Below, in pieces: positions 16,854 through 45,870 of a DNA stretch of 64,000 nucleotides. A program made the translations under genes and the position numbers. The DNA is taken from positions 652,502 to 716,501 of the forward strand of contig KV454013.1 in assembly GCA_001661245.1 (NCBI GenBank), written 5' to 3'. The stretch is from Pachysolen tannophilus NRRL Y-2460 (Eukaryota). The notes under the pieces were generated by a model. It saw only the letters and a list, made by a program, of their open reading frames with translations. It searched no databases and was not told the origin of the DNA. How positions within the stretch are numbered: the stretch's first letter is position 1; each line of letters opens with the position of its first letter.

Positions 16854-17771
16854 ATGTCAACAGAAAAGAAGGAAAGTACATTTTTGATCGATTTCTTGAT
16901 GGGTGGTGTTTCCGCTGCCGTTGCCAAGACTGCCGCTGCTCCAATTGAGCGTGTCAAGTTATTGATTCAAAATCAAGATGAAATGATCAAACAAGGTAGA
17001 TTAGCTAAACGTTATGCTGGTATTGGTGAATGTTTCAAGAGAACTGCTGCTGAAGAAGGTATTGCTTCATTCTGGAGAGGTAACACTGCTAATGTTATTA
17101 GATATTTCCCAACTCAAGCTTTAAATTTTGCTTTCAAAGATAAATTTAAGGCCATGTTTGGTTTTAAGAAAGATGAAGGTTATTGGAAATGGTTTGCCGG
17201 TAACTTGGCTTCTGGTGGTGCTGCTGGTGCAACCTCATTACTGTTTGTCTACTCTTTAGATTATGCTAGAACTAGATTGGCTAATGATGCCAAGGCTGCT
17301 AAAGGTGATGGTAAACGTGAATTCAACGGTTTAATTGATGTTTATAAGAAGACTTTAGCTTCTGATGGTATTGCTGGTTTATACAGAGGTTTCTTACCTT
17401 CTGTTGTTGGTATCATTGTTTACAGAGGTTTATACTTTGGTTTATACGATTCTATTAAACCAGTCATCTTGGTTGGTCCATTAGAAGGTTCTTTCTTGGG
17501 TTCTTTTGCTTTAGGTTGGACTGTTACAACTGCTGCTTCTACTGTTTCTTACCCATTGGATACCGTTAGAAGAAGAATGATGATGACTTCTGGTCAAGCT
17601 GTTAAATATAAAGGTGCTTTCGATGCTTTCTCAAAGATTGTTGCTGCTGAAGGTGTTTCCTCATTATTCAAAGGTTGTGGTGCTAACATCTTGAGAAGTG
17701 TTGCTGGTGCAGGTGTTATCTCCATGTACGATCAATTACAAATGATCATGTTTGGTAAGAAATTCAAATAA
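16854..17771 (+). CDS. PET9: Mitochondrial ADP/ATP carrier
   Basis: RRRMMM signature, [19 protein letters not shown]; strong codon bias. Confidence 0.98.
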
Positions 17772-19213
17772 GCTTGAAAATAAAAAGAAGAGAAAGATTT
17801 TGTAATTAAAAGAAAAAAAATAAAAGAAAATAAAAAATAATCATTTTATTTTATTTTCTTTTTAATTTTTTTTTTGTTTTTTTTGTTTTTATTCTTTATT
17901 TTGTATTTGAGTTTTTTTTATCTTACGCCTTTTTTTTTTTTTTTTTTTTTTTTAAAACCTCCTCTTTNNNNNNNNNNNNNNNNNNNNNNNNNNNNNNNNN
18001 NNNNNNNNNNNNNNNNNNNNNNNNNNNNNNNNNNNNNNNNNNNNNNNNNNNNNNNNNNNNNNNNNNNNNNNNNNNNNNNNNNNNNNNNNNNNNNNNNNNN
18101 NNNNNNNNNNNNNNNNNNNNNNNNNNNNNNNNNNNNNNNNNNNNNNNNNNNNNNNNNNNNNNNNNNNNNNNNNNNNNNNNNNNNNNNNNNNNNNNNNNNN
18201 NNNNNNNNNNNNNNNNNNNNNNNNNNNNNNNNNNNNNNNNNNNNNNNNNNNNNNNNNNNNNNNNNNNNNNNNNNNNNNNNNNNNNNNGTTAGTTTTTTTA
18301 TCTTACGTCCTTTTTTTTTTTTTTATTTGAAAACCTACTCTATTTCTCCTCATTAAATTTTTCTATGAAATATATTTCTATATATATGTGATAAATGTAC
18401 TTTTCATATACAAAAAAAGAAAAAAGAATAATATAAAAAATTAAAAAAATGAAAAATTTAGCTTTAATAAGCCGCTATTCGCCGAACTTTGTTTTTTTTT
18501 TTTTTTTTTTTTTTCTTTCTTTCATTTACTTGCATGCGGCTAAATTTGTAAGCCTTAATTCTAATTAAAGTTACTTACCTCACTCAAATAAAATCATTTT
18601 TTTAGGTATCGTTTCATCTATATTTCATCATGATCCCTTATAAGATTTCTTGTTTGCTAAATCATTTTTACTAAAAGGAAAAAAAAAGATAAACCCTGCT
18701 TAATGAGGGGGAATATTAAATATTTTTTTTAATTTTTTTTTTAAGTATAAAAAAAAAAAAAAATCAAAAGCCGCTAATGCGAATTTTTCATTTTTTTAAA
18801 GATAAAAGAAAAAGGTTTTTAAATTTTAAGTAAATAATAGTAAGTAATATTTGAAAAAATGGAAATTCTACAAAAAAAAAGCTTTTTGATTTAGTATTTT
18901 GTATGTGAAAGATCTGCAATAAAATAGTAATTGAGAAAAAAAAAAAAAAAAAAAAAAAAAAAATTAAAGAGAGATGATAATGATGATGATGATGATTATT
19001 ATGATGATGAAAATGATAATGATAATGGATATGATCTGAAAAAAAATTTAGAAAAAAAAAAAAAAAAAAAGTAAAGTAAAAAAGTAAAATGCAGCATGGA
19101 CTCCTCTTATATCCTATATATGTGTATTGTATGGTATTTGTTGTTGTTATATATTTTGTTAAAAAAAAAAAAAAAAAACAATTCTTGCTAAATTTTTTTT
19201 TCTTTCTCTATAT

Positions 19214-20165
19214 TTAATAATCATCATCTTCATCTTCTTCCAAATCTGTTATTGAACGACAATTTGGACAATTGAATTGTGGATAATTTTTAACTAATAA
19301 TGGTCTGATACATCTATAATGCCAGCTATGTGAGCAAGGACTTATGAATATAGAATCTCCAACTTTTAATGGATTTAAACATATACAACATTCTAATTCT
19401 TCTCCAATCATTTTTTTATGAGTGTCCTTGTTAAACTTATTAGTTTTACGTTTCCATGATTTATTCAATTCAACTCTAACTTTAACACATCTAAAAATTT
19501 CCTCTGATCCACCTCTAAAATCCATTCCTAATTGTAAAATATCACCATCACAAATCATACAATTCCCACTTTCTACACCAGCTGGTGATAACCTTACATG
19601 ATTTAAAAAAGTTCCTGATGATGATTTTAAATCTTTTATAAACCAACGACCTTCATCATCAACAAATAATTCTGCATGTGTTCTAGAGACAACTTTCGAT
19701 TTGAATACAACAGCCAGTGAAGATCCCTGAGGTGCATGCAGAGCATCTTTATTTTTTTCTGTATATCTTCCAACAGCAATTTTCATATTAGGTTTAATTT
19801 TCCGTATTAAAGGTGAAAAATATAACAGTGGAGATGATGAAGAATGATCAATAAATGGAGTCAACCGCACAGAAAAAGAACCATCTGGTTCTTTTCTATC
19901 ATCCGCCTCTACAATTACGGGCGGTACAGCAATAGAATTTTGACGTGTGCGTTCTCTTTCATCTAAATCTTCATCATTAGTGAAATCTTCTTCCAAGATA
20001 GGACCTTCCAGCATTTCAGTATCATCTTCTTGAACTGACCCTGGAGAGCTGAGATTGTTTTCAATTTGTTGTTGATGTTGAGACACCAGAAGAGGCTGTT
20101 GAACAGCATTGCTATTTGAAATTGTTGGGCTATTTGACGCTAGAGGTGTAAACGTTGAATTGTTA

Positions 20166-20200
<35 letters not shown>

Positions 20201-20947
20201 TGTTGCAGCACCACCACCGCTGCTCATACCACCGCTGTTAAAAATTCCAGAATTATTTCTAGAAGACAACGGTCTTATTGTAGCCACAGAAGCCTGATGA
20301 CTCAAATAAGGCGGTGAAACCGGAGTAGTGTTCCCTGCTGATGCTAGTGACGAATTTGAACCATTACCATTAACGCTGTTGTTGTTATAGCCGTTATAGC
20401 TGTTATAATTGTTGCCGCTCATACTATGGCTATGACTATGACTGTGGTTATGATTACCATAAGGGCTTGTGGTCATGGTAGTGGTACTTATAGGAGTATA
20501 TGCCGACTGAAGTTGTACCTGATTCGACGACGGTGTTCTCAAAGAATTTGTAATTGATGAAAATAGAGTACCAAACGATGAACCTCTTCTTCTATTAGTG
20601 GTTGTAGCAGCATTACTTGGGAAAGGGATTTGAGGAGTCAATAAATTATTTTGTGAACTGCTACTTCCATTAGTTGAAGAATGGCCTAACATATTATTGT
20701 TACCGCTATTACTACCACTATTATTATTGCTATTATTATTATTATTATTATTATTATTGTTGTTGTTGTTGTTGTTGTTGTTATTGTTGTTATTGTTATT
20801 GTTACCGTTGTTGTTACTGTTACTGTTGCTGTTGTTGCTGTTGTTGTTATTGGTTATACTTGCGCCGCTACTAATACTATTACTAGATGAATGATGTATT
20901 TCCGGACTGGCAGCAGCTGATGTGCCAACATAACTATTTACTGGCAT
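19214..20947 (-). CDS. DMA1: FHA-RING E3 ubiquitin ligase (Dma1/Dma2)
   Basis: FHA motifs VGRY, FKSKVVSRTHA and SSSGTFLN; RING-H2 CCIC...CSHSWHYRC...CPNCR; poly-Asn N-terminus. ATG at 20947. Confidence 0.93.
20691..20850 (-). repeat. Coding AAT/AAC triplet tract (poly-Asn) in DMA1/2
   Basis: Direct reading; a second tract lies at about 20160-20200. Confidence 0.9.
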
Positions 20948-21515
20948 CTTTTTTTCTCCAAAGACAAATTCCCCTTTTTTTTTTTTTTTTTTTGGATAGT
21001 TAATTGATTCCAATTTCTATTTCAATCTATCTATCTATCTAATGATCTTCTATCTATGATACTCGAAATATAAAATTGATTGATTTAAATAAAAAATTAT
21101 ATTTATTAAATATCAACTTTTAACCAAAGTTTTTTTTTAATTTTGTTTTAGTAATTTTGGTTTTGGCTTTATACACTTTAATCAGAAAAAAAAAATTAAT
21201 TTTTGCTATTTTGGTTAAAAATAGGCAAAAATCCCATGATATAACAATATATATACGGTACAAGATATTGTTGGCGGGTTTACTAATTAGATAGTTTCCA
21301 TTCTGTTTAATTATTCATGGCATCTAGATATAGGTTTATATAAAAGTAATAATAGCAGTAGTAATTGTAGTAGTAGATGGCCTGTTGAAAGTAGGTATTT
21401 GCTTGGTTTATGTGTGTATGTAGTCTTTTTATTTTTGTAAAAATGTGATTTAATATTATCGAGAAGAAATGCAAAACATTAGAAAGTAATTAAAATAAGT
21501 CTATAGAGTTTCACA

Positions 21516-21548
<33 letters not shown>

Positions 21549-21581
21549 GCTATATATGCTATATGATTAGAATAAAATTCA

Positions 21582-22238
21582 TCATATTACCACAATTGTG
21601 TAATGTACGCTTCCATCACTTTTTAAATCTGCTTCAACGTTTGCCTTAAAAGCGCTTTGATTCAACACACCTTTTATTACTCCACAACTAAAATTTAAAT
21701 ATAATCCACTTATTCTATGTTTATCTGGACCGTACATTGATGATATTAAACGATGGCTATTATCTATAAGAACAAATGTACCTCTATGATTTGTTCTTAA
21801 ATTATCTATTTGTTTTTGATAAATCATTTTCCATACATCTCTAGCAATTATTTTCATTATATCCAAAATCTCATCCATCTTTGTACTAATACCATCATTT
21901 TTCAAAAAAATCAATTGTTCAATCAAAATTTTTCCTATTTGAAATCCAAAATTATCCAACATTTGATTATTAATTTCATTCGATACTAAAGATTCATTTT
22001 GGAAAAGTTCTACACCACCATAATGGAAATCATCCACTTGTTTATTATCATTTCCATTTCCAGAACCATTACTTTCCCTGGTTGAACTAGACGAATATTT
22101 TTCTAATTTATCTGTTATTCTTAGAGCCAACGGTCCTAACTCCATCAAAAGATATTCAAGACAAGATACATTTATCTGTTTTTCAAAATCATTATCCACA
22201 TCTGTCTCTACCACTGTTTGATGTAATTGGTTTGACAT
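21582..22238 (-). CDS. TRS33: TRAPP complex subunit Trs33
   Basis: IMKIIARDVWK..YQKQIDNLRTNHRGTFVLID and CGVIKGVL. Confidence 0.93.
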   Translation of the reverse strand: MSNQLHQTVVETDVDNDFEKQINVSCLEYLLMELGPLALRITDKLEKYSSSSTRESNGSGNGNDNKQVDDFHYGGVELFQNESLVSNEINNQMLDNFGFQIGKILIEQLIFLKNDGISTKMDEILDIMKIIARDVWKMIYQKQIDNLRTNHRGTFVLIDNSHRLISSMYGPDKHRISGLYLNFSCGVIKGVLNQSAFKANVEADLKSDGSVHYTIVVI

Positions 22239-22651
22239 AACAAAAACTTAAATCAAATATATATATATATAAATAATAAATAGATAATTTCTTATTCAAA
22301 TATTTGAACCACCTTATTCAAATTGTTATAAACTATTTCCATCTAAACCATTATCATTAATATTTATCTTTAGATTCGTTGTTGTAGTTTAAAAGAGCAA
22401 AATTGATACTACACAAACTACTTTGGATTTCAATCACTTTTCTAAGAGATCAAAGATGCTATTTGAGTAAGAATTGAATAATTCACAAACCAACAAGATG
22501 CCATTGTGGAAATGGGCATAAAAGTATAAAATATTGTATATAAGTATATATACATACTAAACCAATTCTCAGGAGTATAATAATAATAAGAATAATAATA
22601 ATAATAATATAAAAAAACAAATAAAAAAATGACTCTTTCTCACCTAAATTT

Positions 22652-24400: not shown

Positions 24401-24441
24401 ATCTTTTATTCAAAGAATTCAAATGGAAAAGAAAACCAAAG

Positions 24442-24475
<34 letters not shown>

Positions 24476-25295
24476 CCCCNNNNNNNNNNNNNNNNNNNNN
24501 NNNNNNNNNNNNNNNNNNNNNNNNNNNNNNNNNNNNNNNNNNNNNNNNNNNNNNNNNNNNNNNNNNNNNNNNNNNNNNNNNNNNNNNNNNNNNNNNNNNN
24601 NNNNNNNNNNNNNNNNNNNNNNNNNNNNNNNNNNNNNNNNNNNNNNNNNNNNNNNNNNNNNNNNNNNNNNNNNNNNNNNNNNNNNNNNNNNNNNNNNNNN
24701 NNNNNNNNNNNNNNNNNNNNNNNNNNNNNNNNNNNNNNNNNNNNNNNNNNNNNNNNNNNNNNNNNNNNNNNNNNNNNNNNNNNNNNNNNNNNNNNNNNNN
24801 NNNNNNNNNNNNNNNNNNNNNNNNNNNNNNNNNNNNNNNNNNNNNNNNNNNNNNNNNNNNNNNNNNNNNNNNNNNNNNNNNNNNNNNNNNNNNNNNNNNN
24901 NNNNNNNNNNNNNNNNNNNNNNNNNNNNNAAAAAAAATCTTTCCACTGATATAGATACCTCTTTCAAATATTTCTGTTTTCAAACTTTTTATATTATTAT
25001 TATATTATTACTAGAGAAAGGATGAAATTCTGCATAGCATATATATATAATATGTATCTATGTATGTATGTATGTATTCATGTATTATATAATAAATAGT
25101 AATATTAAAATATAAAAAAAAAAATTTTTTTACAGAATTTCCTAATTTGGAATTTGTGGCAACGAAGCACACGACCCTACATTTTCCCATTTTTCCAATT
25201 CATCCTATTTATCTATCTATCTACTCTTCCATTCCAAGTTGGAAACTTAATATGATGACATATATTATGGTATTTTTTTTTTTTTTTTTTTTTAC

Positions 25296-25940: not shown

Positions 25941-27071
25941 ATGTCGAATATCCCATCACTTTTTGATTTGATTCAGTCATCTCCTGCCTCATCGAAAGAG
26001 CAGCGTGTGGTGGAGTCACCGGTTGTGCCGAATTCCAGAAGAGCTTCGAAAAGAAAATCAAGTAATATTGGTCAAGATCGTGTTCAAGAACATGGAGAAC
26101 AAATAGAAGAACAAATAGAAGAAGAAGAAGAAGAGACTTTATTATCACTAGCTGAGAAACGAGATCTGTTGGTTAATAACAGAAAGCTTTTACAAGAAAA
26201 AATTGCAAAATTAAAAGAGAATATTGTTGATTTGGAAACAAAGGTGATAATAACAGAAAATTCAAATAATATACTAGAACCCAAACCCAAACCTTTATCA
26301 ATGTATGAGGAACAATTAGTGGTGCGAGATTTTCAATCAAATTCAAAAAATTCAAATTTAGATAAGCTAAGATCAAATTTGAATACTTTACCACTTTCTA
26401 TTAGTAATAATTGGGATTTGAGTTTATCTTTATTAAAATTATTTCAACCAGATTTAAAACTTGAAATAATTTCAAATTTAATGATGAATTTTAATAATCA
26501 AACAACAAAATTAATACAATTTGATGCATGTTATCAAAATATTTTCAGTTTAAGGTGTCTTTTAAAGATAAATGTTGAATTAGCAAAATTAGAAGAATTT
26601 TCTATACTTAATAGTGATAGTAAAAATATTCCAGCTGATTTATTACCAATAATATCAGATACTAAAATTGTTAAAGATCCAACTCTATTGATTTATTCTT
26701 TAAATTCATATGTGAGATTATTAAAATTAAGAACAGAAATATTTATTAAACTTTTTGATAAATATCAAAAAATATACATAATTAATAATAATAAATTATC
26801 ATCAATGAATATTAATAATAATTTTATTATTAAATTTTTAAAATTTAAAGATGATCCATTGATTGTTTTTGAAAAAGATAATATCAAGTTAAATATAATA
26901 TGGAAACTAATAACAAGAGAAGAAAATTATGGGGAATTCGATAGTGATATCAAGACTATCTTAATCAAGAAAGATGGAACTCATATCAACTATGATCAGT
27001 TGATCAATGAATTGATCTTACAATACGGATGTTTTAATGGAATATGCATGGCTTTAGATAGTTTATCATAG
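25941..27071 (+). CDS. Putative kinetochore subunit Ctf19/CENP-P-like (coiled coil plus probable tandem RWD)
   Basis: 376 aa; disordered N-terminus then a coiled coil. LLIYSLNSY..L...R and the C-terminal LILQYGCFNGI resemble Ctf19 as I recall it. Confidence 0.5.
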   Translation: MSNIPSLFDLIQSSPASSKEQRVVESPVVPNSRRASKRKSSNIGQDRVQEHGEQIEEQIEEEEEETLLSLAEKRDLLVNNRKLLQEKIAKLKENIVDLETKVIITENSNNILEPKPKPLSMYEEQLVVRDFQSNSKNSNLDKLRSNLNTLPLSISNNWDLSLSLLKLFQPDLKLEIISNLMMNFNNQTTKLIQFDACYQNIFSLRCLLKINVELAKLEEFSILNSDSKNIPADLLPIISDTKIVKDPTLLIYSLNSYVRLLKLRTEIFIKLFDKYQKIYIINNNKLSSMNINNNFIIKFLKFKDDPLIVFEKDNIKLNIIWKLITREENYGEFDSDIKTILIKKDGTHINYDQLINELILQYGCFNGICMALDSLS

Positions 27072-27275: not shown

Positions 27276-27827
27276 TTAAAAGCGAAACCCCATTTCAATA
27301 CCTTCTTGACTAAACCCACATTTTTCATAAAACCCAGTGTTTTTAGCATCACAATCTAATATAACTTTATAACAATTCTTTAATCGTGCAAGCTCCACTA
27401 AATTTTTAATCAATATTAAACCCAATTTTTTACCTTGTTCTGACAAGTCAACAGCTATATCTTCAATATGACCAACTTTCCCACATTTGTGAATTAATTT
27501 GGATTCAACTATCAACATCCCTGAAGCAACAACTTTACCCTCTCTATTTGTGATAACTAAAGGATTATAAACATGCGAATTTGCAATCCATTCACTATAT
27601 AAATTTGCAAATTCCTCTTTGGTAACATCACCAACTGTAGTTAAAGTCTTTAAAACTGGAATTAAATTATTATTAAAATCATTCTCCTCTAATGACCGAA
27701 GTATATAACCATCTGGTAATGAAGGTATCTTCCGTGTGCTGCTACCATCAGATAAAGACGAACTCGTAGACATAGTGCAAGTATTCTCGTGTCTAAATGA
27801 TTCGAAAGAAACCAAAGCCGGTGCCAT
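27276..27827 (-). CDS. GNA1: Glucosamine-6-phosphate N-acetyltransferase
   Basis: LTTVG, KLIHKCGKVGHIEDIAV, QGKKLG and CYKVILDC..KN.GFYEKCG. Confidence 0.97.
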   Translation of the reverse strand: MAPALVSFESFRHENTCTMSTSSSLSDGSSTRKIPSLPDGYILRSLEENDFNNNLIPVLKTLTTVGDVTKEEFANLYSEWIANSHVYNPLVITNREGKVVASGMLIVESKLIHKCGKVGHIEDIAVDLSEQGKKLGLILIKNLVELARLKNCYKVILDCDAKNTGFYEKCGFSQEGIEMGFRF

Positions 27828-28947: not shown

Positions 28948-31275
28948 ATGCCGGTGCCGAGGATACATAGAAGAAAGAAAGTAATTGCGCTACTAACTAT
29001 TTTAGCGTTAGTCTTGTTAGCGGTTTTTCAAAAAATTACTAGTTATAGCGGTAGTATTATTAGTACTGATGACGCATTTAAGATCAAAAACGGAAAAGAT
29101 GAGATTACAAAATCTAAAGATGATAATTCAGTTATAGAACAAGATCAACAATTGCCGGTAGTTGAAGAGGTTCTGGAAAAAAAAATAGATGGAAATAATA
29201 TTGCTTTGAGTCTCTTGGATTTGCCAGAGTTATCAGAATCACCAATAATATATAATAGAATAGGTAATCACAGAATTCAAACAAATATTAAAGATGAACT
29301 GGAACATGTTGGGAAATTTTTATATGGTAAAGATTATATATTTAGTATTCCTTTGAAAGAGGAGAATCTGGTGAGGGAGTTACCAATGAGAAGTAGCGAT
29401 GATAAAAATAAGGAATTTCCAAAAATGCAAAGGAAAAATACTCATAAACCCAAGAGTTCCAAAAAGATACTGGATGTTAGAGATGTTTTCCGAAGAAATT
29501 GGCAAAGTTATTATGAGCATGCACTTAAATATGATGAATTTAGTCCATTGACTTTAACCGGTTCTGATTCTTACTTTGGTTGGTCATTAACTCTAATAGA
29601 TTCATTGGATACTTTATTATTGATGGGCTTTAGAGAAGAATTTAAAGATTCTGTAGCATATATTAATAAAATAGATTTTACTAAAATTTTGAATAGAGAT
29701 GATTTACCAATTTTTGAAGTAAACGTTAGAGTTCTTGGTGGGTTGTTAAGTGCATATGATTTATCTAATGACCGTCGATTGTTGTCAAAAGCAATACAAG
29801 TTGGGGATTTATTGTTAAGGTCGTTTGATACATATAACAATTTCCCTGTCTTGTATTATAACTTAGTTGAAAACCAACAATCTAGAAAATTTAAATTTGC
29901 ATCTATGAGAAACTACTTGTCAGAATTAGGCTCCTTAAGTTTGGAATTTACAAGATTATCCATAATAACAGATGATTTAAAGTATTTCCAGTACTCTATG
30001 AATTTAATAAATGCAGTTATCGAGTCTAAAGATCGTTATTTTATTGCTGATTTTATTCCAAATGAGTTGGATCTAAGTGGTTGCTCCCATGTTTTAGATG
30101 AAGAAGAAATTTCTAAGATGTATAATGGGAAACTGCCAAAAAATTCAAAGAAAGCTATATTAATAAATGATAATAACAATGATACTAAAATAGTATATTG
30201 TACACAAAATGAAGATAGAAAATTTATCAAACCTTCTTCTTTAGATAATCAATTTTTTTCGTTAGAAGGGAAATCAGATTCTTTTTATGAATATTTACTC
30301 AAATTATATATTCTATTAGATGGAAATTTGGATCAACAATATTTGGAATTTTTCAAAAATTCAAAAGAAAAAATTAAAAAATTTTTAATCTTTAAACCAA
30401 AAGTTCCTAATAATGAAAACTTGTTGTTTTTAAATGAGGTATCTGTTAAAAAATTAAAAGAAAATAATAAATTTCAATTAAATCAAAGCAATTCTGTTTC
30501 TCATGCATCATGTTTTGCTGGTGGGTTTTTTGCGTTAAGTTCCAGAATTCTTAATGATAAAAATGATTTGGAGCTAGCTCATAAATTAACCAAAAGTTGT
30601 GCCGATTTCGACAATAGATTGGGATTATTTCCAGAATCTTTTAACGTTGATAGCTGTGATTCTACTGACGATGAAAAATGTGTATATGATGAGTCTCTGA
30701 GAATGGAATGGATTAAAGAACACTCAAATAATCTTATGAATTCAGACGAAAAACATGATACCAAGAAGAAAGTCGTTGTCGATGGAGAAAATATATATGA
30801 AGTCGAGACTTCAATGAGTAGACTGAATGCTCCAATATCAGAAGATAATAAGAGATTGGATGCTGGAAATGCTGCAAATCAGCCTATTTACTTGAACAAC
30901 TTGGATCCTCGTTACTTGATGAGGCCACAACTAGTTGAATCGCTATTTATCATGTTTAGAATCACAGGAGCTGATGAATATCGTGATATTGGGTGGAAGT
31001 TGTTCCAAAAACTCAATCAATATACTGCGGTTAATATCAAAATTTATAGTTTCCCGGAAACTGTCAACGCTCCGATAAAAGATGTAACCAAGTTCAACCA
31101 TGGTAATGGCTACGATAAATCAAATTATGAGAATTATTTAGAGAGTTTTTGGTTTGCTGAAACCTTGAAATACTTTTACTTGTTGTTTGAGGATTCAAAG
31201 ATTTTAAGTTTAGACGATTGGGTCTTCAATACTGAGGGGCATCCTTTGAAAAAACAAAAGTATATCCCGATTTAA
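28948..31275 (+). CDS. MNL2: GH47 class I alpha-1,2-mannosidase, type II membrane protein (Mnl2-like)
   Basis: LIDSLDTL, FEVNVRVLGGLLSAY, DSFYEYLLK, ESFWFAETLKY and FNTEGHP. ATG at 28948 precedes the signal anchor. Confidence 0.8.
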   Translation: MPVPRIHRRKKVIALLTILALVLLAVFQKITSYSGSIISTDDAFKIKNGKDEITKSKDDNSVIEQDQQLPVVEEVLEKKIDGNNIALSLLDLPELSESPIIYNRIGNHRIQTNIKDELEHVGKFLYGKDYIFSIPLKEENLVRELPMRSSDDKNKEFPKMQRKNTHKPKSSKKILDVRDVFRRNWQSYYEHALKYDEFSPLTLTGSDSYFGWSLTLIDSLDTLLLMGFREEFKDSVAYINKIDFTKILNRDDLPIFEVNVRVLGGLLSAYDLSNDRRLLSKAIQVGDLLLRSFDTYNNFPVLYYNLVENQQSRKFKFASMRNYLSELGSLSLEFTRLSIITDDLKYFQYSMNLINAVIESKDRYFIADFIPNELDLSGCSHVLDEEEISKMYNGKLPKNSKKAILINDNNNDTKIVYCTQNEDRKFIKPSSLDNQFFSLEGKSDSFYEYLLKLYILLDGNLDQQYLEFFKNSKEKIKKFLIFKPKVPNNENLLFLNEVSVKKLKENNKFQLNQSNSVSHASCFAGGFFALSSRILNDKNDLELAHKLTKSCADFDNRLGLFPESFNVDSCDSTDDEKCVYDESLRMEWIKEHSNNLMNSDEKHDTKKKVVVDGENIYEVETSMSRLNAPISEDNKRLDAGNAANQPIYLNNLDPRYLMRPQLVESLFIMFRITGADEYRDIGWKLFQKLNQYTAVNIKIYSFPETVNAPIKDVTKFNHGNGYDKSNYENYLESFWFAETLKYFYLLFEDSKILSLDDWVFNTEGHPLKKQKYIPI

Positions 31276-31778: not shown

Positions 31779-33758
31779 ATGTTAAATTATACGGAGATGC
31801 ATTCACATACATCGTTTTCAACATCATCGTCTAATTACGATAATCAGAAATATTCTTCAGCAACATCACCTTCTTCGATAGAGACAAACAATTTTTTTTT
31901 TGAAAACCCATATTCAGTTTCCAATTCCCTTTTCCCACTACAAGAAATTCCGCAACTTCAAATTTACGAGGAATCGGCAAGCTTAAATCTCACGAGAAAA
32001 GAGGTTGTATCTGTTCCTCATCATGCATACGCACATTTTGAAAAGATGAAGCTGGTAAAACCGCTTGGTAATCAAAATGAAATATTAAACGAATTACTTG
32101 ACGAAGAACAAGAAGAAGAATTAATCATGCCATCATTGGAAGAAGAAAATAAAGAAAACAGGCCATTCAACTTAACAAATCCATATGCAACATCATTATG
32201 GTATACAACTCGTGGAAATATTGGAGATTCTGAAATAAATCAAATAAATCAAAGAGCCAAAGCCAAAGAAGTTTTAAAAGAAGTTTGTGTTCCAGACAAC
32301 ATGTTTGAAGAAGATCGCACTTCTAGCTTGCTAATAAAGAAAACTGTATTGGATTTAATAGTTTTTGAAAAAAATTACTTGAACAAGATGTTACTAGTTT
32401 CAGATTATAAAGCTGTTTTGTCTAAGAAAACAATTTCAAAATCTCAAGAACTGATTCTTTTTAATTCTTTTATTACTTTAAAAGATATAAGTAAGAATTT
32501 TTTGGAAGATCTTACAAAATTTTTGATTTTATCAAATAAAAACCTCAGTTTTCATAAATATGATGAACTGAAAAATATAAATCAGCTTGATCTTATTGAA
32601 ATAATAGATAATTGTGATACTGGAAAATTAAAACTTGAAAACTTGCTTGAAATGCATTTGATAAATTTATCGATTTCATTAAAATCGTACTACATGAACT
32701 ATGAAAGGCAATTAGCTATTTTCAAAAAAATAAATGAGACAAACTCCAAATTTAAACAATTTGTAAATAATTTTCAGAAACAAAATAACGGTTTGAATTT
32801 ATTGGAAAATCTTAAGTTACCTTTTAAGCTTGTGTCGGAATATAAAAACATTTTAAATGATTTAATAGTAAAAGATCTTGATTTTTCTCAAGTTTCTAAA
32901 AAATTGAATGAATTCAACGAATTTCAAATTTTAGAATCACAAGATATAATACCATCAAATATATCGACAACAACAACAACAACTACAAGACAGAAAAGTT
33001 TACGTTTATTCAAACATAATTCCAAAAAAATAGGATTGGAACCAGATTTATTTGCAGATTTTAAATTAAAATTTAAGCAACTGAAAGATCTTTTTAAATT
33101 AATCAGTGGGAATTCAATTCCAAAAGAATTGTTAACGTATATTCAAAAGAACAATATTAACAATGCAAAAAATTTTAAAAAATTTATGGAATGTATAAAG
33201 GATGAGAATAATAATCATAATGATAATACTTATTTTATAGACAATGCTTATGAACTTTACTTAAACAAATTACAATGTCAACAAAAAGAATTATCTTTAA
33301 GAATTGATTTTAAAAATTGCAGTATCTTGAAAAAATTGGAAGTTTTATTGAAAAATTGTGAAATTGTTAAAACAAGAATTGAAAATTATAAGAAAAGAGT
33401 ATTATCAAATAATACAAATATCAAAGGAATAGAAATTTTAGAAAAACAATTAAATTTGGAATTACCAAAATTTTTAAAAATAACGAATTTAGTGATTGAG
33501 AAAATTTTAATAATGATATTTGGTATGATAATGACTGTTTTAAAAGAATTGTTATCACCTAGTAGTAAAGATACAGATTATGCACGTATTATAAATAATT
33601 ATTTATATCAAAAAGAACAAACAAGATTTTTAATAATTAATGGGTGTCGAAATAAGGAAAAAATATTAAAATATTATTATAATAGTTTTAATGCTGAAAA
33701 GGATATTATACCTTCTAGTCCCAGCAGTAGTTACGTTATAAGAAAATTATTTCTTTAA
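31779..33758 (+). CDS. DH/RhoGEF-like plus BAR-like coiled-coil protein (Fus2-like)
   Basis: DH helix 1-like VLDLIVFEKNY; LKLPFKLVSEYKNILNDL; C-terminal LNLELPKFL. First ATG at 31779. Confidence 0.55.
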   Translation: MLNYTEMHSHTSFSTSSSNYDNQKYSSATSPSSIETNNFFFENPYSVSNSLFPLQEIPQLQIYEESASLNLTRKEVVSVPHHAYAHFEKMKLVKPLGNQNEILNELLDEEQEEELIMPSLEEENKENRPFNLTNPYATSLWYTTRGNIGDSEINQINQRAKAKEVLKEVCVPDNMFEEDRTSSLLIKKTVLDLIVFEKNYLNKMLLVSDYKAVLSKKTISKSQELILFNSFITLKDISKNFLEDLTKFLILSNKNLSFHKYDELKNINQLDLIEIIDNCDTGKLKLENLLEMHLINLSISLKSYYMNYERQLAIFKKINETNSKFKQFVNNFQKQNNGLNLLENLKLPFKLVSEYKNILNDLIVKDLDFSQVSKKLNEFNEFQILESQDIIPSNISTTTTTTTRQKSLRLFKHNSKKIGLEPDLFADFKLKFKQLKDLFKLISGNSIPKELLTYIQKNNINNAKNFKKFMECIKDENNNHNDNTYFIDNAYELYLNKLQCQQKELSLRIDFKNCSILKKLEVLLKNCEIVKTRIENYKKRVLSNNTNIKGIEILEKQLNLELPKFLKITNLVIEKILIMIFGMIMTVLKELLSPSSKDTDYARIINNYLYQKEQTRFLIINGCRNKEKILKYYYNSFNAEKDIIPSSPSSSYVIRKLFL

Positions 33759-34626: not shown

Positions 34627-34714
34627 TTTCTGTTTATCGTTATCGCTATTATTTACTCATGTCATATATTTTTGACTATTTCTAAAAAGTGTCATGACAT
34701 TAGAAAAATATAAA

Positions 34715-34750
<36 letters not shown>

Positions 34751-35821
34751 TGATGAGATTTCAGCTTTAGAAAGAAAACNNNNNNNNNNNNNNNNNNNNN
34801 NNNNNNNNNNNNNNNNNNNNNNNNNNNNNNNNNNNNNNNNNNNNNNNNNNNNNNNNNNNNNNNNNNNNNNNNNNNNNNNNNNNNNNNNNNNNNNNNNNNN
34901 NNNNNNNNNNNNNNNNNNNNNNNNNNNNNNNNNNNNNNNNNNNNNNNNNNNNNNNNNNNNNNNNNNNNNNNNNNNNNNNNNNNNNNNNNNNNNNNNNNNN
35001 NNNNNNNNNNNNNNNNNNNNNNNNNNNNNNNNNNNNNNNNNNNNNNNNNNNNNNNNNNNNNNNNNNNNNNNNNNNNNNNNNNNNNNNNNNNNNNNNNNNN
35101 NNNNNNNNNNNNNNNNNNNNNNNNNNNNNNNNNNNNNNNNNNNNNNNNNNNNNNNNNNNNAAAAAAAGAAAAAATTGATTGATGAGATTTCAGCTTTAGA
35201 AAGAAAACAAAAAAAAAAAAGAAAACAAAGGGAAAAATCCATATAGCCCCTGTAATTACAAGGGCTTTGTGGTAATTACGTCATTTATTCCTAGAGCCCC
35301 AGTTAGGGTTTCAAGAGAAAAGATCAACAGCCCCTATCAATTACTTTTTAGTAACTTATCACACTACTTGCAACTTTCTCTTTTACTCTTTTTCTTTTTT
35401 ACCCTCTTTTTAAGAAAAGTAAAAAAAATCGGTTTTCAATCTAGCAAACACTTTTTAACTTTGCCATCGAGGAACATCACATCAAGTTACTTTTTGTTAT
35501 AGGAAATTTTTATAATTTTATTAGAATTTTTAAAAAATTATAAAAATTATAAAAAATATAGATATATATATATATTATATTATATTAAATTAAACTTAAT
35601 TCAATTAAAGAATTTGTTTATAAAGAAATATTAAAATATTAAAATATTAAGATATATAATTGATCGATTTTAAATTTAATTTAATTTAAATTTTTCAATA
35701 TTTTTAATTTTTAATTTCTAATTTTTTTTTTAAAAAATATAAAAGGAAAAATAATCAAATAAATAAATAAATCAAATTTTTATTTTTATTTTTTCTTTTT
35801 AATTTCTTCTTTGTTGGAATA

Positions 35822-38091: not shown

Positions 38092-38437
38092 ATGGTTTCA
38101 CAAGAATTTACTGATAAAGTATGTAATTGAGTGTTTTTTTACTTTTTTTTTGTGATTTTTAAGTTAATCGCCGTTACTAACAAATTTTCTTTTTTTTCTT
38201 TAGGCAAAAACTGTTTCTGAATTATCCAAGAGACCAAACGATGATGAATTGTTGAAGTTATACGGATTGTATAAGCAAGCTACTGTTGGCGATAACACTA
38301 CCGAGAAACCAGGTATGTTTGATTTTAAAGGCAAGTTTAAATGGGAAGCCTGGAATAATGAAAAAGGTATTTCTCAGGAAGAAGCTGAAAAGCAATATAT
38401 TGAATTTGCAGATCAAATGATTTCTAAATATAATTGA
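38092..38437 (+). CDS. ACB1: Acyl-CoA-binding protein; exons 38092-38118 and 38204-38437
   Basis: Intron GTATGT (38119)...TACTAAC (38175)...TAG (38203). Spliced product MVSQEFTDK|AKTVSELSKRPNDDELLKLYGLYKQATVGD. Confidence 0.96.
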
Positions 38438-38636
38438 TATATAAGTTATGTTTCTTTCAAGAATTCTTTCAACAACAACAACAGCACCAAAAAAAAAGAA
38501 AAAAAAAAAATTTTGAAAGCATAATAATTGAAAAGTCTCTTTAGGCTGGCTCTCTTGCTTTTATCAACTAGTTTATGGGTTAATTGAAAAAAAAAAAAAA
38601 GAAGAAGAAAAAAAACACAAAAAAAGGCAAAGATGT

Positions 38637-39251
38637 TTATTCATTTTTTTTAGATTTTAAAAATTCCATCTGTAGTAAATTTGTAATTCTTTTCGTAAAA
38701 TCAATAAATATGATGGCAGGTATTAAAAAAGTTGGAAAATAAACAAAAATTAAATTTATAACTTCTCCATTTGTTAATCCATTCTCTGGTCCTTTAAAAT
38801 AAACATAAAATAAACATACCAAAGTTGTTAATGAAGCATTGAATCCATAAATCAAATTACAAACATATAGTTTTGGATTTGGAGTAACAGTTACCGAAAA
38901 TTTTTTTTTCAAAAATGTAATACAATAGTAAATGAAAAATGGTAATTGGAATAAAATTTCAATCAATCCAAAAATCTTTAACCATAATTCAACATCACCA
39001 GCTAATAAGAAATCATTATTGCTTGAAATGTGGAAAGATAATATAGTTTTCTGTAATTCCAATTGAAATTCTTTTGGTATAACTAATGTTGAATCAATCA
39101 AAACAGTTATCGGTATATGGATTAAACTAAATAAATAAAAGTTAGCAATTAACGTCTATACATATATAATCATCTATCATCATCATCATCATTATAACAT
39201 GGCTTACTAATATAAGAAGTAGAATCTATCTAGAAATTGTTGTGAACTCAT
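38637..39251 (-). CDS. EMA19: EXPERA/TMEM97-family ER membrane protein; exons 39251-39208 and 39126-38637
   Basis: Intron GTAAGC...TGCTAAC...TAG (39207-39127) restores FYFLYYLIHIPITVLIDS; also DFLL, E..FQLPFF and YGFNASLTT. Confidence 0.85.
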
Positions 39252-39443
39252 TTTTATCCTTGTTGTATAAATTTAATGTATCACATATATTTATGTGTTG
39301 AAATGAAAATAATTTTGCAACCCGTTTTAAATTATACTATACATAATATAATATAAAATATATATAAATATAAATATATATATATATTTATTTATATTTA
39401 TTTATATACAAAATCTATAGTCTACTTCTATGATTTTTCCCGA

Positions 39444-40571
39444 ATGTGTTCTGCTACGGAGAAATCTTTAAATCCATTGGTAAAACTTATTCAAAAAGTA
39501 TTACAAGAAAATGATCCATCATTGAAAGTTGTATTTCTGGTAGGCGCTGGTATTTCTACATCTGCTGGTATACCCGATTTCCGCTCTCCCAAAACTGGTT
39601 TATATCATAATTTATCTAAATTGAATTTGCCATACCCAGAACTGGTTTTCGATATTGATTTTTTTGCTAAAAATCCAAAACCTTTTAATTTATTGTGTAA
39701 TGAATTATATCCGGGGAAATTTTTACCTACAAAATTTCATTATTTAATTAAACTTTTCCATGATAAGAATTTACTTAAAAGATGTTATACTCAAAATATT
39801 GATAATTTAGAAAGACTTGCTGGGTTGCCGGATGATAAGGTTGTTGAAGCTCATGGTTCGTTTGTGAAAAATCATTGCATCAAATGCCATGAAGAATTGA
39901 GTATTAAAGAATTTCGTTCGTTCTTAGTTAAAGATGAGATACCTAAATGTTCCAAGTGTAAAAATTATGTTAAGCCAGATATAGTATTTTTCGGCGAAGC
40001 TTTACCTCATGAGTTTTTTGATAAATGGGATGAAGATTTAAGCGATGGAATTGATGTTTGTATTGTTGCTGGTACTTCATTACAAGTATATCCATTTGCA
40101 ACATTACCAGGAGAGACTCCAGACTCTACATGGAGAATCTTAATTAATAGAGAAAAATGTGGCGATTTTGAAATGAATAGTAGGAAAAAAGATTTAGTAT
40201 TATTGGGGGATGCTGATGAAATTGCTTCCATGCTTATCAAGCAGTTGGGGTGGGAAGATGATTTAAATAAGTTGCTTGAAAATGGCCGTGCGCTATTGAA
40301 AGAGAATAAACTTACATTATTCAAAGATGAAGAATTAATAGTGGAAACAGCTGAGGAAAGATCTAAAGAGTTGGCTAAGGAAATTGCAGAAGTTGAAACC
40401 GCAGAGGAAAAGAAGCCTATCGAAGAAGATAAGAATGTTACTGAACTTCTCGGTGAAATCGAAAAATTGGATATTGGTTCAAAAAATGACAATGCTAACA
40501 AAGATAGTAAAGGAAAAGATAATGAGGAAAAGAATATTAAGGAGAAAGATGCCGAGGATAAAAAAAGATAG
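39444..40571 (+). CDS. HST2: NAD+-dependent deacetylase (Hst2/SIRT2 class)
   Basis: GAGISTSAGIPDFRSP, YTQNID, HGSF, CxxC...CxxC, KPDIVFFGE and GTSL.VYPFA. Confidence 0.95.
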   Translation: MCSATEKSLNPLVKLIQKVLQENDPSLKVVFLVGAGISTSAGIPDFRSPKTGLYHNLSKLNLPYPELVFDIDFFAKNPKPFNLLCNELYPGKFLPTKFHYLIKLFHDKNLLKRCYTQNIDNLERLAGLPDDKVVEAHGSFVKNHCIKCHEELSIKEFRSFLVKDEIPKCSKCKNYVKPDIVFFGEALPHEFFDKWDEDLSDGIDVCIVAGTSLQVYPFATLPGETPDSTWRILINREKCGDFEMNSRKKDLVLLGDADEIASMLIKQLGWEDDLNKLLENGRALLKENKLTLFKDEELIVETAEERSKELAKEIAEVETAEEKKPIEEDKNVTELLGEIEKLDIGSKNDNANKDSKGKDNEEKNIKEKDAEDKKR

Positions 40572-40783
40572 CGATTACAAATTTGATAACTGATAATATA
40601 AATTACGTTGGACTTATTAGTGAGCCAACCAGAAATATTTTTCATTCAAAATTCACAAAATATCTTAACTCAATATTTCAGACAATAATAAATACTTAAA
40701 AATAAAAATAAAAATAAAATAAAAAAAGAATATATACCACTTACTTTTAAAAAACTCATCCAATTTGTAGATATACCTGCCAT

Positions 40784-42148
40784 CTACCATTGCATAAACT
40801 CTGTCTCAGGGTTTGAACCTTGACATTCAACTTCTTTACAAAAATCTTCCAATTCCAGAGCTTCATCTGACTGTTTCTTACCACCAACATAAGCTGGATT
40901 AATTGGCTTTCCAGCTTCTTTTTCCTTTGCCCAATGTTCTTTTACCATTTCTTTAACAATTTTTTGGTAAAATAAGACACCATTTTCCTTTTTAGGGTGC
41001 AAGTATCCTGTAGAGTAAACACCTTCATTTAAATTTTTTTGTGTTAATTCACACAAGTTGAAGTCTTCCAATTCAACAAGCTGTAAGAAATCAACAAATT
41101 CCTTTTTCTTGTCATCAGCTAAACCTTTCTTGGTGAAAATATCATATTGCAAGATTGTATGAGTTGCAGTGATTGGTAAAACTCTAATAGAATACCAAGC
41201 TGGAGAATAGCAATTTACACCATTACTTGGATACAAGTAAACCCATAAACCATTAAATTCCCCACCTGGGTTTTCCTTCTTACCTTCTTTCTTCAGTGGT
41301 TTTGCTTCATTTTTCTTTTTACCGAAACCAAACCAAGAAGAATTATTTTCATCTTCATCATCATTGTCTTCAGGTATTTCAACTTCTTCTTTAACAATTT
41401 CTGCATAATGTCTGCAGTAGTTATTTTTTGGTACAACTTTATAAGTAGACATCTTAAAAGCTGCATTAAGACCTGGATGAGCAGTTGGACAATGATAACA
41501 CTCTTGATAACCGTCCATCAAAGTTTTCCAATTGAACTGACCATCCAACTCATAACTCATGTGATATTCATAATCTGAGAAATCGTACTCGTGCATTTCA
41601 TCTTGTAAACCTTTATACCAATCATCAAAGGGAATTGGACCTTCCTCAGTTGCATCGAAATTGACAAAGATTAAACCTTGATCAGTAACATGAGTTCTAA
41701 TACCAAATAATCCATTCTCTTCTTTCTTAAAACCTTGAACATCGTCAAAATGTGGTGCTTTAGTCAAATTACCATCTGCATTATACGACCAACCATGATA
41801 TTTACAACCAAGGATAACTGAAGAACCTTTCTCCTTTCTTACAACTGGATAAGCTCTGTGACGACAAACGTTATGAAAAGCTTTGATTTCATTACTTTTG
41901 GTCTTAATTAAGAAAAAATTAATACCAGTGACGTTATAACTGAAATAATCACCTGCTTTCTTAAACCTTGAAGCATGAGCTGTATATAACCATGTCTTGT
42001 GGAAAATAGCTCTTTTCTCTAATTCAAAAATTTTTTCAGAAGTCCACCATGAAGCAGGTAATGTATGCTCACCTGGCATTAAAACTTCTTGTACTTGATC
42101 TACTTGCGATGGTACAGGTTGAACTTCTGCAATACTTGCTGCTGACAT
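40784..42148 (-). CDS. Rieske non-heme iron oxygenase, choline monooxygenase-like
   Basis: Rieske CRHR...CKYHGW; mononuclear-iron motif NWK...DGYQECYHCPTAH. Confidence 0.85.
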   Translation of the reverse strand: MSAASIAEVQPVPSQVDQVQEVLMPGEHTLPASWWTSEKIFELEKRAIFHKTWLYTAHASRFKKAGDYFSYNVTGINFFLIKTKSNEIKAFHNVCRHRAYPVVRKEKGSSVILGCKYHGWSYNADGNLTKAPHFDDVQGFKKEENGLFGIRTHVTDQGLIFVNFDATEEGPIPFDDWYKGLQDEMHEYDFSDYEYHMSYELDGQFNWKTLMDGYQECYHCPTAHPGLNAAFKMSTYKVVPKNNYCRHYAEIVKEEVEIPEDNDDEDENNSSWFGFGKKKNEAKPLKKEGKKENPGGEFNGLWVYLYPSNGVNCYSPAWYSIRVLPITATHTILQYDIFTKKGLADDKKKEFVDFLQLVELEDFNLCELTQKNLNEGVYSTGYLHPKKENGVLFYQKIVKEMVKEHWAKEKEAGKPINPAYVGGKKQSDEALELEDFCKEVECQGSNPETEFMQW

Positions 42149-44008
42149 TTTTCACGGCACTAATACTTTGGTACTATAGTTATTAAGAACTACAATATTT
42201 TACAAAAATCTTATAATCATCTGGGGGGGAAATATTACAAGAATATATACTTCTTACTTCCCCAGGAAATCATGTACCAGATTGGGAAAGCACTTTCATA
42301 TTATCATTATCATAAATAATTTTTACTATTGATTCCTTAAACCGTTAGTGCAATTCCTGTCAAGCAGAGATAGCATCTTATTACTGATAGCGGCGACAGC
42401 TGTCAAGACGCAGGATTTATCTCTTATCATTTTTTCCCAATTTGGTAAAAATAAACCGGGCGCACTACTTTTTTTGGGTGGTAATCATCTTTCGTGGGAT
42501 TGGCAGGACGATTGTGAGAACGATGGGAAGGACAATGGGCGGAGACTAGTAGGGCCAGGGCCAGCGACTAGTAAGGAAGGGGGTAAGATGGATAAGCCAA
42601 CAAACAAATGAGCCTGTTCACCAATATTATATTCTTGGCTATATTTACCGAAAGTTCCTGTTTTCAAGATCTGTTAGTTATGTCTTTAAAGTCGTCAGCG
42701 ATAGCCTGATCCAGTATATCTATATCTTGTGTTTATACACCATTCTTCTCCTCGTCTCTTTTCCTATTTCTGTAAATTATTACTAGTCTATGAATGATTG
42801 ATAAAAGCACAGTTTCCAAAAAAAGTATTAGACCTACTGGGGAGGTTACTCTCTTTGGATATTTTGAAAGATACGTGGGCTAGTAGCTCGAAGCTAAGAT
42901 TAGTGTATGAGTTGCCTGGTTCTTCTTATTGGCTGTATACGGATTTTGCGATATGACCAACTGATTATCAGTTCAGTAACCTTATTGTTGGCCCAGTTCA
43001 ATTGAAACAAAGCAAAATGACAACCAATATCTACAATGTTATCTTAATTATTTTCAACAACAGGTAGTTGCTCCTCAAGATATCAATCATCCATCCAGCA
43101 TTATTTGGAAAATCAGTATAAATGAAAAAGAAAAAAATCACTAACTAGATGATGATATTCATTAGCTCAAGAAAACAGCTCATTCTAAAGAATTGTTTGT
43201 TTCTAATTTAAAACTCCCAAGATAAACCACATCTCCACCCTAATATTGCAGATGTATATCACTCAAAAAGAATAAAAGCCGATCAATCAAAATAACTAAA
43301 TTATTTGTAAGTTTAGCAACATGTGCTTCCCCAAATGATGTAATTTCCAAAACTAATATTCAACCGCCAAAACTTGTTGTTCAAATAATAGATCAAAAGC
43401 ATTAATTAAAACCTTGATATGTCTAAGAAATGTAATATAAAAATCAACTTTTTTCTTCTCGTGATAAGTTTGAAAAAAAAAATATTAAATTGCAGTTCTT
43501 ACTTCACTTCAGAAGCATCCTCATCATTTCTCAGACAACTTTAAATCGAGAAGATTAAAATTATATCCAAAAAATATATGATATTATTAATTAAGATCAC
43601 GGCCATAAAGATGCAAGGTATCTCTAATTTTCCTTTTAAGTAGTCGTATCGATAAGGAAAGCCTTCACTTTTCGGAATGGTGCAAGGTGCCGGAATATAA
43701 AATACGATATCAGATAAACGTTAGGTTATTATATTATTTCCTAGAGCGCATCTATAGATGACCTAAAGTTAACCATCTACACATCCCACACCACATCAAA
43801 TATATATTTGATTTCATTTATTTTACTGTTTCCATTTCAATTTTCATTTATTATTTTACTTAAATCGTAAACATTAAATTCTATAGAGCATTCATTACAG
43901 TATGGTTACAATAATATAATAACAACAACAAGCAAAAAAGAGAAAGAGAGAAAGACAAACAAGACAAAAAAAAAAAGTATATAAATATGCAGTTGTGACT
44001 TTTAGTCA

Positions 44009-45109
44009 TTAATCATTAATCAAACCTTTGTTAGCCAATTCATTTAGTATACTACCCATGATGAAATTCCTTGAACTTATGGTGTCCACATCACGTACTT
44101 CTTTTAAACTTAAATCTATCTTGGCCTTTTCTTTTGCATTTATTAATTTACTAATTATCACACAAGTTAAAGCAATAACAAAAATTCCACAATCATATTC
44201 ATTTTTCTGTTGTGGAGCAGACTTTATGGGAATATATTTAAAATCCCAATTAATATGTTTTTTCAGAGGTTTTGATGAATTATAATTTTCATTGAAAAAA
44301 AAATTCAATTTTTTTATTAATATCTTGGATTCTTCCTCATTTGACCCAATTAAACTATCATACAGGAAAACTTTTGCATCCAGAACCAGAACTACAAGTA
44401 AAGACCAATGTGATCCACCATCGTTTAAAGGAAGTATTAAAAAGCTCGATTGGACAATGTTTGAAGGTAAAATCGTTTTTAATTCTAAAGGTAATAAATT
44501 TGAATTGGCTAGTAAATAACACATACTAGGCGTTAGCAATACAATTTTGTCCTTCAAGTTAAATTTTTTCTCAAATGGTTTTATTTGTAACTCGTAAAGC
44601 ATGGAATAACAATAAGTGATTATATTATCGTTCAACCATTCTCCAACTTGTAAAGTATATAAATCTTCTTTATATATGGTGGTTTCTTTCATCAAAAAAG
44701 AAGATTTTTCCACTTTCATACCTTTATCATACCGCAATTTTAAAGTTTGACGTTCATCTTTTGGATTTGAACCATTAATACCAATAATATTCTTATTTTT
44801 GTGAAGACCCAACTTCCGTTGCTCCCTCTTAGCTTTTCTCAACTCTTTTCTTTCTTGTTTGGACAATCTTGTTCTCAATTTACTATTTGTTGGTATTACT
44901 TCTTTTTCTTTTTCTTGGTCATCGCTTTCATCATTAACATCATTACCAGCTATTAAATTGTTAAACCCATTTGGCCATTGTAAAACATCAAACCCATTAG
45001 TTACTATGGGCAGAATATTCTCTTCTTCACTTTCAAGACCTTCATCAATATCTTCATACCCATTCGGTATATAAAATCCTTTGTTCTTGCTAAATACAGT
45101 TTTAATCAT
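44009..45109 (-). CDS. Ulp1/C48-family cysteine protease, SENP8/NEDP1-like
   Basis: EWLNDNII, LPLND.GSHWSLLV, YDS and QQKNEYDCG (His-Asp-Cys triad). The ATG at 45109 is preferred because the ATG at 45229 adds only poly-T-encoded sequence. Confidence 0.8.
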   Translation of the reverse strand: MIKTVFSKNKGFYIPNGYEDIDEGLESEEENILPIVTNGFDVLQWPNGFNNLIAGNDVNDESDDQEKEKEVIPTNSKLRTRLSKQERKELRKAKREQRKLGLHKNKNIIGINGSNPKDERQTLKLRYDKGMKVEKSSFLMKETTIYKEDLYTLQVGEWLNDNIITYCYSMLYELQIKPFEKKFNLKDKIVLLTPSMCYLLANSNLLPLELKTILPSNIVQSSFLILPLNDGGSHWSLLVVLVLDAKVFLYDSLIGSNEEESKILIKKLNFFFNENYNSSKPLKKHINWDFKYIPIKSAPQQKNEYDCGIFVIALTCVIISKLINAKEKAKIDLSLKEVRDVDTISSRNFIMGSILNELANKGLIND

Positions 45110-45269
45110 AGTCGGCCCGATAGAAGAAATATAAGAAAAACACAAAAAAAAAAAAAATAAAAAAATAAAAAATACAAAAAAAAAATTAATACCTAAAAAA
45201 TAGTACGAATTTTCCATAATTGATAACATGGAATGGTATAGTATAAAGTGAGCAAGAAATCTATGAATA

Positions 45270-45870
45270 ATGGTAAAGTAAGTATGATTTTGAAAAATTT
45301 AATCTGATAGAGAGAATTCTGTTAACCTGTATTTATAGTCCACTTATTGCTGAAGATTCATTACCGTTGAATTATAATACTCCACCATTCCCATCATTAT
45401 ATTGGCCTCTAGGTTCAACTCATAGTTCTTATAAGAGTTCATATTTATATTATACAAAAGAAATATGGTGGTTTACAGTGGTGTGGACGATGATTTTTTT
45501 CCTGGGGTTTTATTGTGCTAGTGGGATAATACTGTGTGTTAATAATAGCCGACGTAGCTTTATTCTTGGAGGGTTATACATAATTTTTTACATAGTGATT
45601 GGATGTATTCAAGGATTTATAAGTGGTACAGTTGTTGGAATAATGTGAGTATAAGAGATATTTAAGTTTTTAAGCTATCTATTTTATTTTATTTTATTTT
45701 ATTTTTATTTTTATTTGTTTTGTTTTACTAACAACATGAGTTTAAGAATTGCTGAAATTTACCGATCGGGTCAATTTTCAATGTCTACATGGATACCAAT
45801 GGCATGGGGTGTTATACAAATCTTATTTGCCACGTTAACGTCTTACTCTATGACTTCTGTTGTGATTTAG
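45270..45870 (+). CDS. TMEM170-family membrane protein (YPR153W/May24-like); exons 45270-45277, 45339-45644, 45747-45870
   Basis: Introns GTAAGT...TGTTAAC...TAG and GTGAGT...TACTAAC...AAG. Spliced product contains TPPFPSLYW, IWWFTVVWT and IYRSGQFSMSTWIPMAWG. Confidence 0.85.

Follow-up and report, generated by a model that had tools for sequence, protein, structure and literature searches.

Which amino acid does the codon CUG specify at this yeast locus? The question is raised by the stretch of DNA analysed here, 64,000 nucleotides of contig KV454013.1 from Pachysolen tannophilus NRRL Y-2460 (hereafter, the window), for which a preliminary description had proposed that CTG codons sit at conserved alanine (Ala) positions, and that the genome accordingly reads CUG as Ala instead of leucine (Leu) or serine (Ser). 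Our analysis points to the same code: with a probability of about 0.93, the window stems from the nuclear genome of a budding yeast belonging to the CUG-Ala clade, in which CUG is decoded as alanine, as in translation table 26. Three other readings were weighed, namely, that CUG is mostly alanine but ambiguous at some sites, where Ala and Leu or another residue would both be inserted; that the standard code holds and CUG is leucine; and that serine is inserted at CUG (table 12), as happens in the Candida/Debaryomyces clade or in Ascoidea/Saccharomycopsis. CUG-Ala decoding was published in 2016 (the preliminary description, too, calls the phenomenon described but rare), and it is both known for this organism and already applied to this locus; the result adds no new knowledge in this respect.

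The public translations of the locus provide a first comparison. The public protein of the GH47 mannosidase (P0105) departs from the standard translation solely at its seven CTG codons, each of which appears as Ala, and the public protein of the Ulp-like C48 peptidase (P0345) differs from the standard translation in the same manner at five CTG codons out of five. For the ADP/ATP carrier (AAC), the HST2 sirtuin and the Rieske oxygenase-like protein, exact look-up in NCBI, UniRef and nr found the table 26 translations and none of the standard-code translations. Altogether, 17 of the 17 CTG codons checked in these five genes (GH47, seven; Ulp-like, five; AAC, one; HST2, two; Rieske, two) are recorded as Ala, which is at odds with both leucine and serine, and the depositors already apply CUG = Ala to this locus. 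In the case of the DMA1 and CSF1 open reading frames (ORFs), exact look-up gave no entry in the collection for either translation, table 26 or standard, and the window's own CSF1 is absent among its 100 homologue matches; the public models of these two genes probably differ from the plain ORFs.

To compare CTG codons with other codons, we used the set of 26 ORFs of at least 150 amino acids, in which 72 in-frame CTG codons occur among 14,448 codons, with at least one CTG in 19 of the 26 ORFs. Standard-code translation would thus place Leu at 72 sites in these ORFs where the cell would place Ala, and downstream work on proteins of the window requires table 26. Four genes were aligned with their homologues, namely, CSF1 (100 homologues), GH47 (119), DMA1 (120) and the Ulp-like peptidase (149), with the CTG codons of the query masked as X. 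These genes hold 35 of the 72 CTG codons, 29 of which fall on columns with an occupancy of at least 0.7, and the control columns for Leu, Ser and GCN (Ala) codons were drawn from the same alignments. Among the CTG-bearing ORFs outside this tally are RhoGAP, GCR1_C, metallophosphatase, DUF2417 and reticulon, together with 31779-33758, 11542-12495, 2806-3801 and 25941-27071.

The commonest homologue residue at the 29 CTG columns is Leu in six, Glu in four, Pro, Ser and Ala in three each, Asp in two, and one of eight other residues once each. If CUG were leucine, these columns should resemble those of the other Leu codons, where Leu is commonest in 218 of 412; the six of 29 found for CTG are far fewer (binomial p 0.0004, Fisher 0.0009), and the same is seen when columns with at least 50% Leu are counted (2/29 versus 136/412, p 0.003). 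Serine fares no better, as Ser is commonest in 3/29 CTG columns versus 173/382 columns of Ser codons (binomial p 0.00006, Fisher 0.00014), and makes up at least 50% of one CTG column versus 94/382 (p 0.006). CTG columns, therefore, behave unlike Leu codons and unlike Ser codons. At the 50% threshold, no significant difference was found between CTG and GCN codons (p 0.07, 0.27 and 1). At the upper end of conservation, columns with at least 80% Ala are found under 2/29 CTG codons, compared with 3/412 for the five remaining Leu codons (Fisher p 0.037), and when the >80% rule of PMC5951914 is used, the two CTG columns that pass it, DMA1 403 and DMA1 411, are both Ala. The power of this tally is limited, as it consists of 29 columns with Ala commonest in just three; hence the claim of a conserved alanine at CTG codons, as a general statement, is overstated and applies to a minority of them.

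A second line of evidence is an empirical classifier, which learns from the four alignments the homologue residues that go with a given query residue, and with which 30 CTG columns were scored by weighted occupancy. Ala ranked first of the 20 residues, both on the complete data and in each of the four runs in which one gene was left out. When the commonest residue of each column was scored, the log-likelihoods (lnL) were -80.1 for Ala, -87.6 for Met, -90.1 for Ser and -97.3 for Leu; in the soft version of the score they were -87.0 for Ala, -89.4 for Ser and -99.2 for Leu. Thus, Leu stands 17 lnL units behind Ala, with a rank between 8th and 18th of 20, and Ser is 10 units behind on the first score. 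Bootstraps were won by Ala in 0.73 to 0.91 of cases. Of 53 control codons, the classifier assigned 49 to their standard residue and missed AGC, ATA, ATG and GTA; it is relevant for the leucine reading that 0.93-1.0 of subsamples gave Leu for the Leu controls CTA, CTT, TTA and TTG.

A third line of evidence is provided by the placement of the window in a CSF1 tree built with FastTree (24 rows and 2838 columns), which rests on one gene and a quick method, and on a sequence set without a named Alaninales member. The window's CSF1 joins its nearest relative, the protein P0005, with a support of 100, the two being 48% identical over the kept columns. Together they form the sister group of Candida boidinii and Ogataea (Pichiales), with a support of 97, apart from Serinales, Ascoidea and Saccharomycetales. 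This is the position at which Pachysolen (PMC4986446) and the CUG-Ala clade (PMC5951914) have been placed, and it agrees with alanine and not with either serine-decoding group. No Leu was found in P0005 at conserved-Ala columns of CSF1, which would have been a sign of a shared code, with only 9-24 such columns in existence.

Taken individually, the CTG sites tell a more uneven story (coordinates and sequence contexts in Table 1). The four codons that the preliminary description had singled out, in HST2, DMA1, AAC and a TMEM170-like gene, are all in frame and lie where it had placed them, and its identification of the last family is supported by Pfam PF10190; as for a conserved alanine at these codons, the expectation holds for two of them and is not confirmed for a third. 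First, DMA1 411 is on an Ala column, with Ala in 98 of 120 homologues (82%). Second, the residue equivalent to HST2 67 is Ala in Hst2 of Saccharomyces cerevisiae, a match that extends to that one protein, of which the five alignments are constructs. Third, AAC 130 is not on an Ala column in the carriers compared, as detailed below. The strongest Ala column found was missing from that earlier list: DMA1 403, with Ala in 113 of 120 homologues (94%), surpasses every site cited there. These two DMA1 columns are difficult to reconcile with leucine. Also in DMA1, codon 374 falls on a column of small residues, at which the closest relative, P0225, carries Ala. Elsewhere, the CTG columns of GH47 and the Ulp-like peptidase are mostly unconserved; in the comparison of Gaa1 with S. 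cerevisiae, codon 459 is opposite a gap and codon 592 is beyond the match; and in that of CMR2 with solved structures, CTG 1378 is within an insertion, and the matches do not reach its two remaining CTG codons.

Several observations weigh against alanine. First, some CTG codons are on columns of other residues: the equivalent of AAC 130 is Leu in three of four solved carriers (AAC2 and AAC3 of S. cerevisiae and a third carrier, 6gci) and Cys in the fourth, the bovine carrier; HST2 32 and Ku70 227 correspond to Met in S. cerevisiae, the former therefore not being an Ala column; and CSF1 779 and 1954 are on columns with 54-59% Leu. Second, Ala is the commonest residue less often at CTG than at GCN columns (3/29 versus 45/143; binomial p 0.008, Fisher 0.023). 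Third, with the soft score of the classifier, Ala is ahead of Ser by merely 2.4 lnL units, and a Codetta-like score with background pseudocounts, applied to 30 columns, gave -13.0 for Ser, -21.2 for Ala and -27.7 for Leu, with no positive value for any residue; GCT and GCG are likewise negative for Ala with this score. Fourth, a public translation reflects the code chosen by the depositors and is no independent measurement of decoding. Fifth, ARAGORN found no tRNA genes in the 64-kb window, in line with the earlier remark that no tRNA-CAG is visible in it. Together with the tally, these points call for caution: the signal is weak in a single window of 64 kb, because most CUG codons are on variable columns, and a few hand-picked Ala columns are poor evidence when taken alone.

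A mechanism for the reassignment is given in the literature. The ancestral tRNA-Leu(CAG) would have been lost, and a duplicated tRNA-Ala would have gained the anticodon CAG. The alanyl-tRNA synthetase reads the G3:U70 pair and A73, and not the anticodon; a synthetase that ignores the anticodon would still charge tRNA-Ala(CAG) with alanine, and this tRNA would decode CUG. For P. tannophilus, tRNA(CAG) is reported to carry both G3:U70 and A73, that is, alanine identity elements (PMC4937558). To this we would add that many of the present CTG codons may have arisen after the reassignment, at sites that tolerate change, and such an origin would leave most CTG codons on variable columns and some of them on Leu, Met or Pro columns. 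If they arose by single mutations, residues that a single change of CTG can reach (Leu, Met, Val, Pro, Gln and Arg) should be overrepresented as the commonest residue; they are found at 11/29 CTG versus 35/143 GCN columns, which is not significant (p 0.17), so that the data agree with this idea in direction only.

Of the three alternatives, the one that is marginally less unlikely, while being highly improbable, is that CUG is mostly alanine and ambiguous at some sites, since ambiguous decoding would account for the CTG codons retained on columns dominated by Leu or Met. Its published basis is found in PMC4937558, where, among 907 sites with full support, eight are reported to have peptides showing a second residue alongside Ala and another 18 to have non-Ala peptides, and in PMC5951914, which leaves room for low-level incorporation of other residues. 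Against this, 97.2% of the same 907 CUG sites of P. tannophilus, as determined by mass spectrometry, are reported with Ala only (PMC4937558), and no data from the window bear on decoding directly. A more specific version, in which a fraction of the protein would carry another residue at CSF1 779, CSF1 1954, AAC 130, HST2 32 and Ku70 227, is very unlikely as well. GCN codons for Ala are on Leu columns at a rate similar to that of CTG (4/143 versus 2/29, p 0.27), such that no special decoding is needed for CTG there. Given this rate, it is simpler to suppose that CTG sites on Leu and Met columns tolerate Ala.

The standard code is extremely unlikely. With CUG as leucine, the CTG codons on Ala columns would be chance substitutions and the Ala of the public proteins a choice made during annotation, and it is true that Leu is the residue most often commonest at CTG columns, that two of these columns have a Leu majority, that AAC 130 is Leu in three of the four carriers, and that HST2 32 and Ku70 227 are on hydrophobic (Met) columns. 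However, this is what the controls speak against, as the other Leu codons of the same genes show Leu columns much more often and are recognised as Leu by the classifier. Serine can hardly be sustained either: it ranks first, with a negative value, in the Codetta-like score, and Ser predominates at CSF1 629 (78%) and Ulp-like 281 and is the S. cerevisiae residue at Gaa1 479, but the tally, both classifier scores, the CSF1 tree and the public proteins all disagree with it.

A Pfam scan showed that the genes of the window are ordinary for a budding yeast, and besides those in Table 1 it named a DIP2/CMR2-like protein, the ADP/ATP carrier, a reticulon, Ku70, a RhoGAP protein and GAA1. The GC content of the window is low, 22-34% across 4-kb windows, in keeping with that of Pachysolen, which is about 30%. 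Five sequencing runs, of DNA or of undeclared type, contain this sequence, with no RNA run among those listed, and reads of this kind would say nothing about decoding. RKI1, RPS7, the TRAPP subunit and the GNAT acetyltransferase are free of CTG codons, too few genes to judge whether CTG is avoided under high expression. The window includes five blocks of N totalling 2,224 bases, and two ORFs are open mainly through such blocks; they have no Pfam match and are not to be counted as genes. Another ORF, antisense inside HST2 and free of CTG, is probably spurious. In the case of the Ulp-like peptidase, codon 41 of the longest ORF is the start of the public model.

Two frames seem to share the TMEM170-like gene, which would thus be split. 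PF10190 matches both exon-like parts, with profile positions 2-64 in the frame ending at 45648 and positions 39-101 in the second frame, 45655-45870; the second part scores 37.9 bits, above the cut-off of 29.5, and the first part 22.5 bits, which is sub-threshold. The first frame has no ATG ahead of 45490, and an intron or another start site is likely.

DMA1 has asparagine runs in its N-terminal half, one of more than 30 consecutive residues and a second of about 15, and a low-complexity stretch rich in Ser and Asn ahead of the FHA domain. Among its homologues is an entry labelled 'MAG: FHA domain-containing protein [Asgard group archaeon]', MAG standing for metagenome-assembled genome, which is identical at 419 of 421 positions to a Dma1-like protein of Candida tropicalis (P0327, P0325). 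The only two differences are Leu in the MAG and Ser in the yeast. Judged from these sequences, the entry looks like yeast DNA that was binned into an archaeal MAG and translated with CUG as Leu.

Table 1. Genes, ORFs and CTG codons of the window discussed in the text (homologue counts refer to the alignments described above).
Feature	Coordinates	Strand	Identified by	CTG codons or codon context	Remarks
RKI1	112-966	-	Pfam	zero	
RPS7	2084-2653	+	Pfam	zero	
DMA1-like FHA-RING ligase	19214-20947	-	Pfam		
TRAPP subunit	21582-22238	-	Pfam	zero	
GNAT acetyltransferase	27276-27827	-	Pfam	zero	
GH47 mannosidase	28948..31275	+	Pfam	7	
HST2 sirtuin			Pfam	2, at codons 32 and 67	
Rieske oxygenase-like	40784..42148	-	Pfam	2	
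Ulp-like C48 peptidase	44009..45109	-	Pfam	5	public model, 366 aa
Ulp-like, longest ORF	44009-45229	-			406 aa
TMEM170-like	45277-45870	+	Pfam PF10190		split across two frames, apparently
CSF1	52593..61895	+	Pfam	18	
N-spanning ORF	24423-25025	+			200 aa; N block 24480-24929
N-spanning ORF	34700-35242	-			180 aa; N block 34780-35160
ORF antisense inside HST2	40007-40645	-		zero	212 aa
AAC codon 130	17241..17243	+		ATSL[CTG]FVYSLDY	in frame; public protein has A
DMA1 codon 411	19715..19717	-		QGSS[CTG]AVVFKSK	in frame
DMA1 codon 403	19739..19741	-		KNKDA[CTG]HAPQGSS	
DMA1 codon 374	19826..19828	-			homologues G 95/120, A 7/120
HST2 codon 32	39537..39539	+		VVF[CTG]VGAGIS	public protein has A
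HST2 codon 67	39642..39644	+		LPYPE[CTG]VFD	in frame; public protein has A
TMEM170-like codon	45532..45534	+		SGII[CTG]CVNN	in frame; another CTG at 45502-45504
CSF1 codon 629	54477..54479	+			homologues S 75, A 8 of 100
CSF1 codon 779	54927..54929	+			homologues L 58, F 19, V 10 of 100
CSF1 codon 1954	58452..58454	+			homologues L 54, I 13, V 11, F 11 of 100

Three known systems can be compared with what is seen in the window. First, the CTG columns of the window are mixed and without a dominant residue, in which they resemble the CUG-Ser2 yeasts, Ascoidea and Saccharomycopsis; conflicting BLAST-based results of this sort are reported for that clade (PMC5951914), as is dual decoding of CUG as Ser and Leu in Ascoidea asiatica (PMC6041473). 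The window differs from them in that it is not placed beside Ascoidea rubescens in the tree, its public translation has Ala, and Ala is the best fit. Second, the CUG-Ser1 yeasts of the Candida/Debaryomyces clade (table 12, Serinales) share with the window the codon concerned, its reassignment through capture by a tRNA that is charged without regard to its anticodon, and the fact that CTG is rare and mostly off conserved Leu columns. The residue, in contrast, is Ala in the window and not Ser, and the window is outside Serinales in the CSF1 tree.

Third, as regards the code of P. tannophilus itself (table 26), no departure from its published description was found in the window. CUG is Ala in the public translations of the locus, without exception among the codons checked; the window is sister to Pichiales, as expected for Pachysolen and for the Ala clade (PMC4986446, PMC5951914); and CTG is rare yet widespread, being present in most of the window's ORFs, just as the 16,824 CUG codons of P. 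tannophilus are reported to affect 80% of its genes (PMC4937558). The Ala clade has since been widened to Nakazawaea and Peterozyma (PMC5951914), and decoding of CUG as alanine is given as diagnostic for the order Alaninales (PMC11182611).

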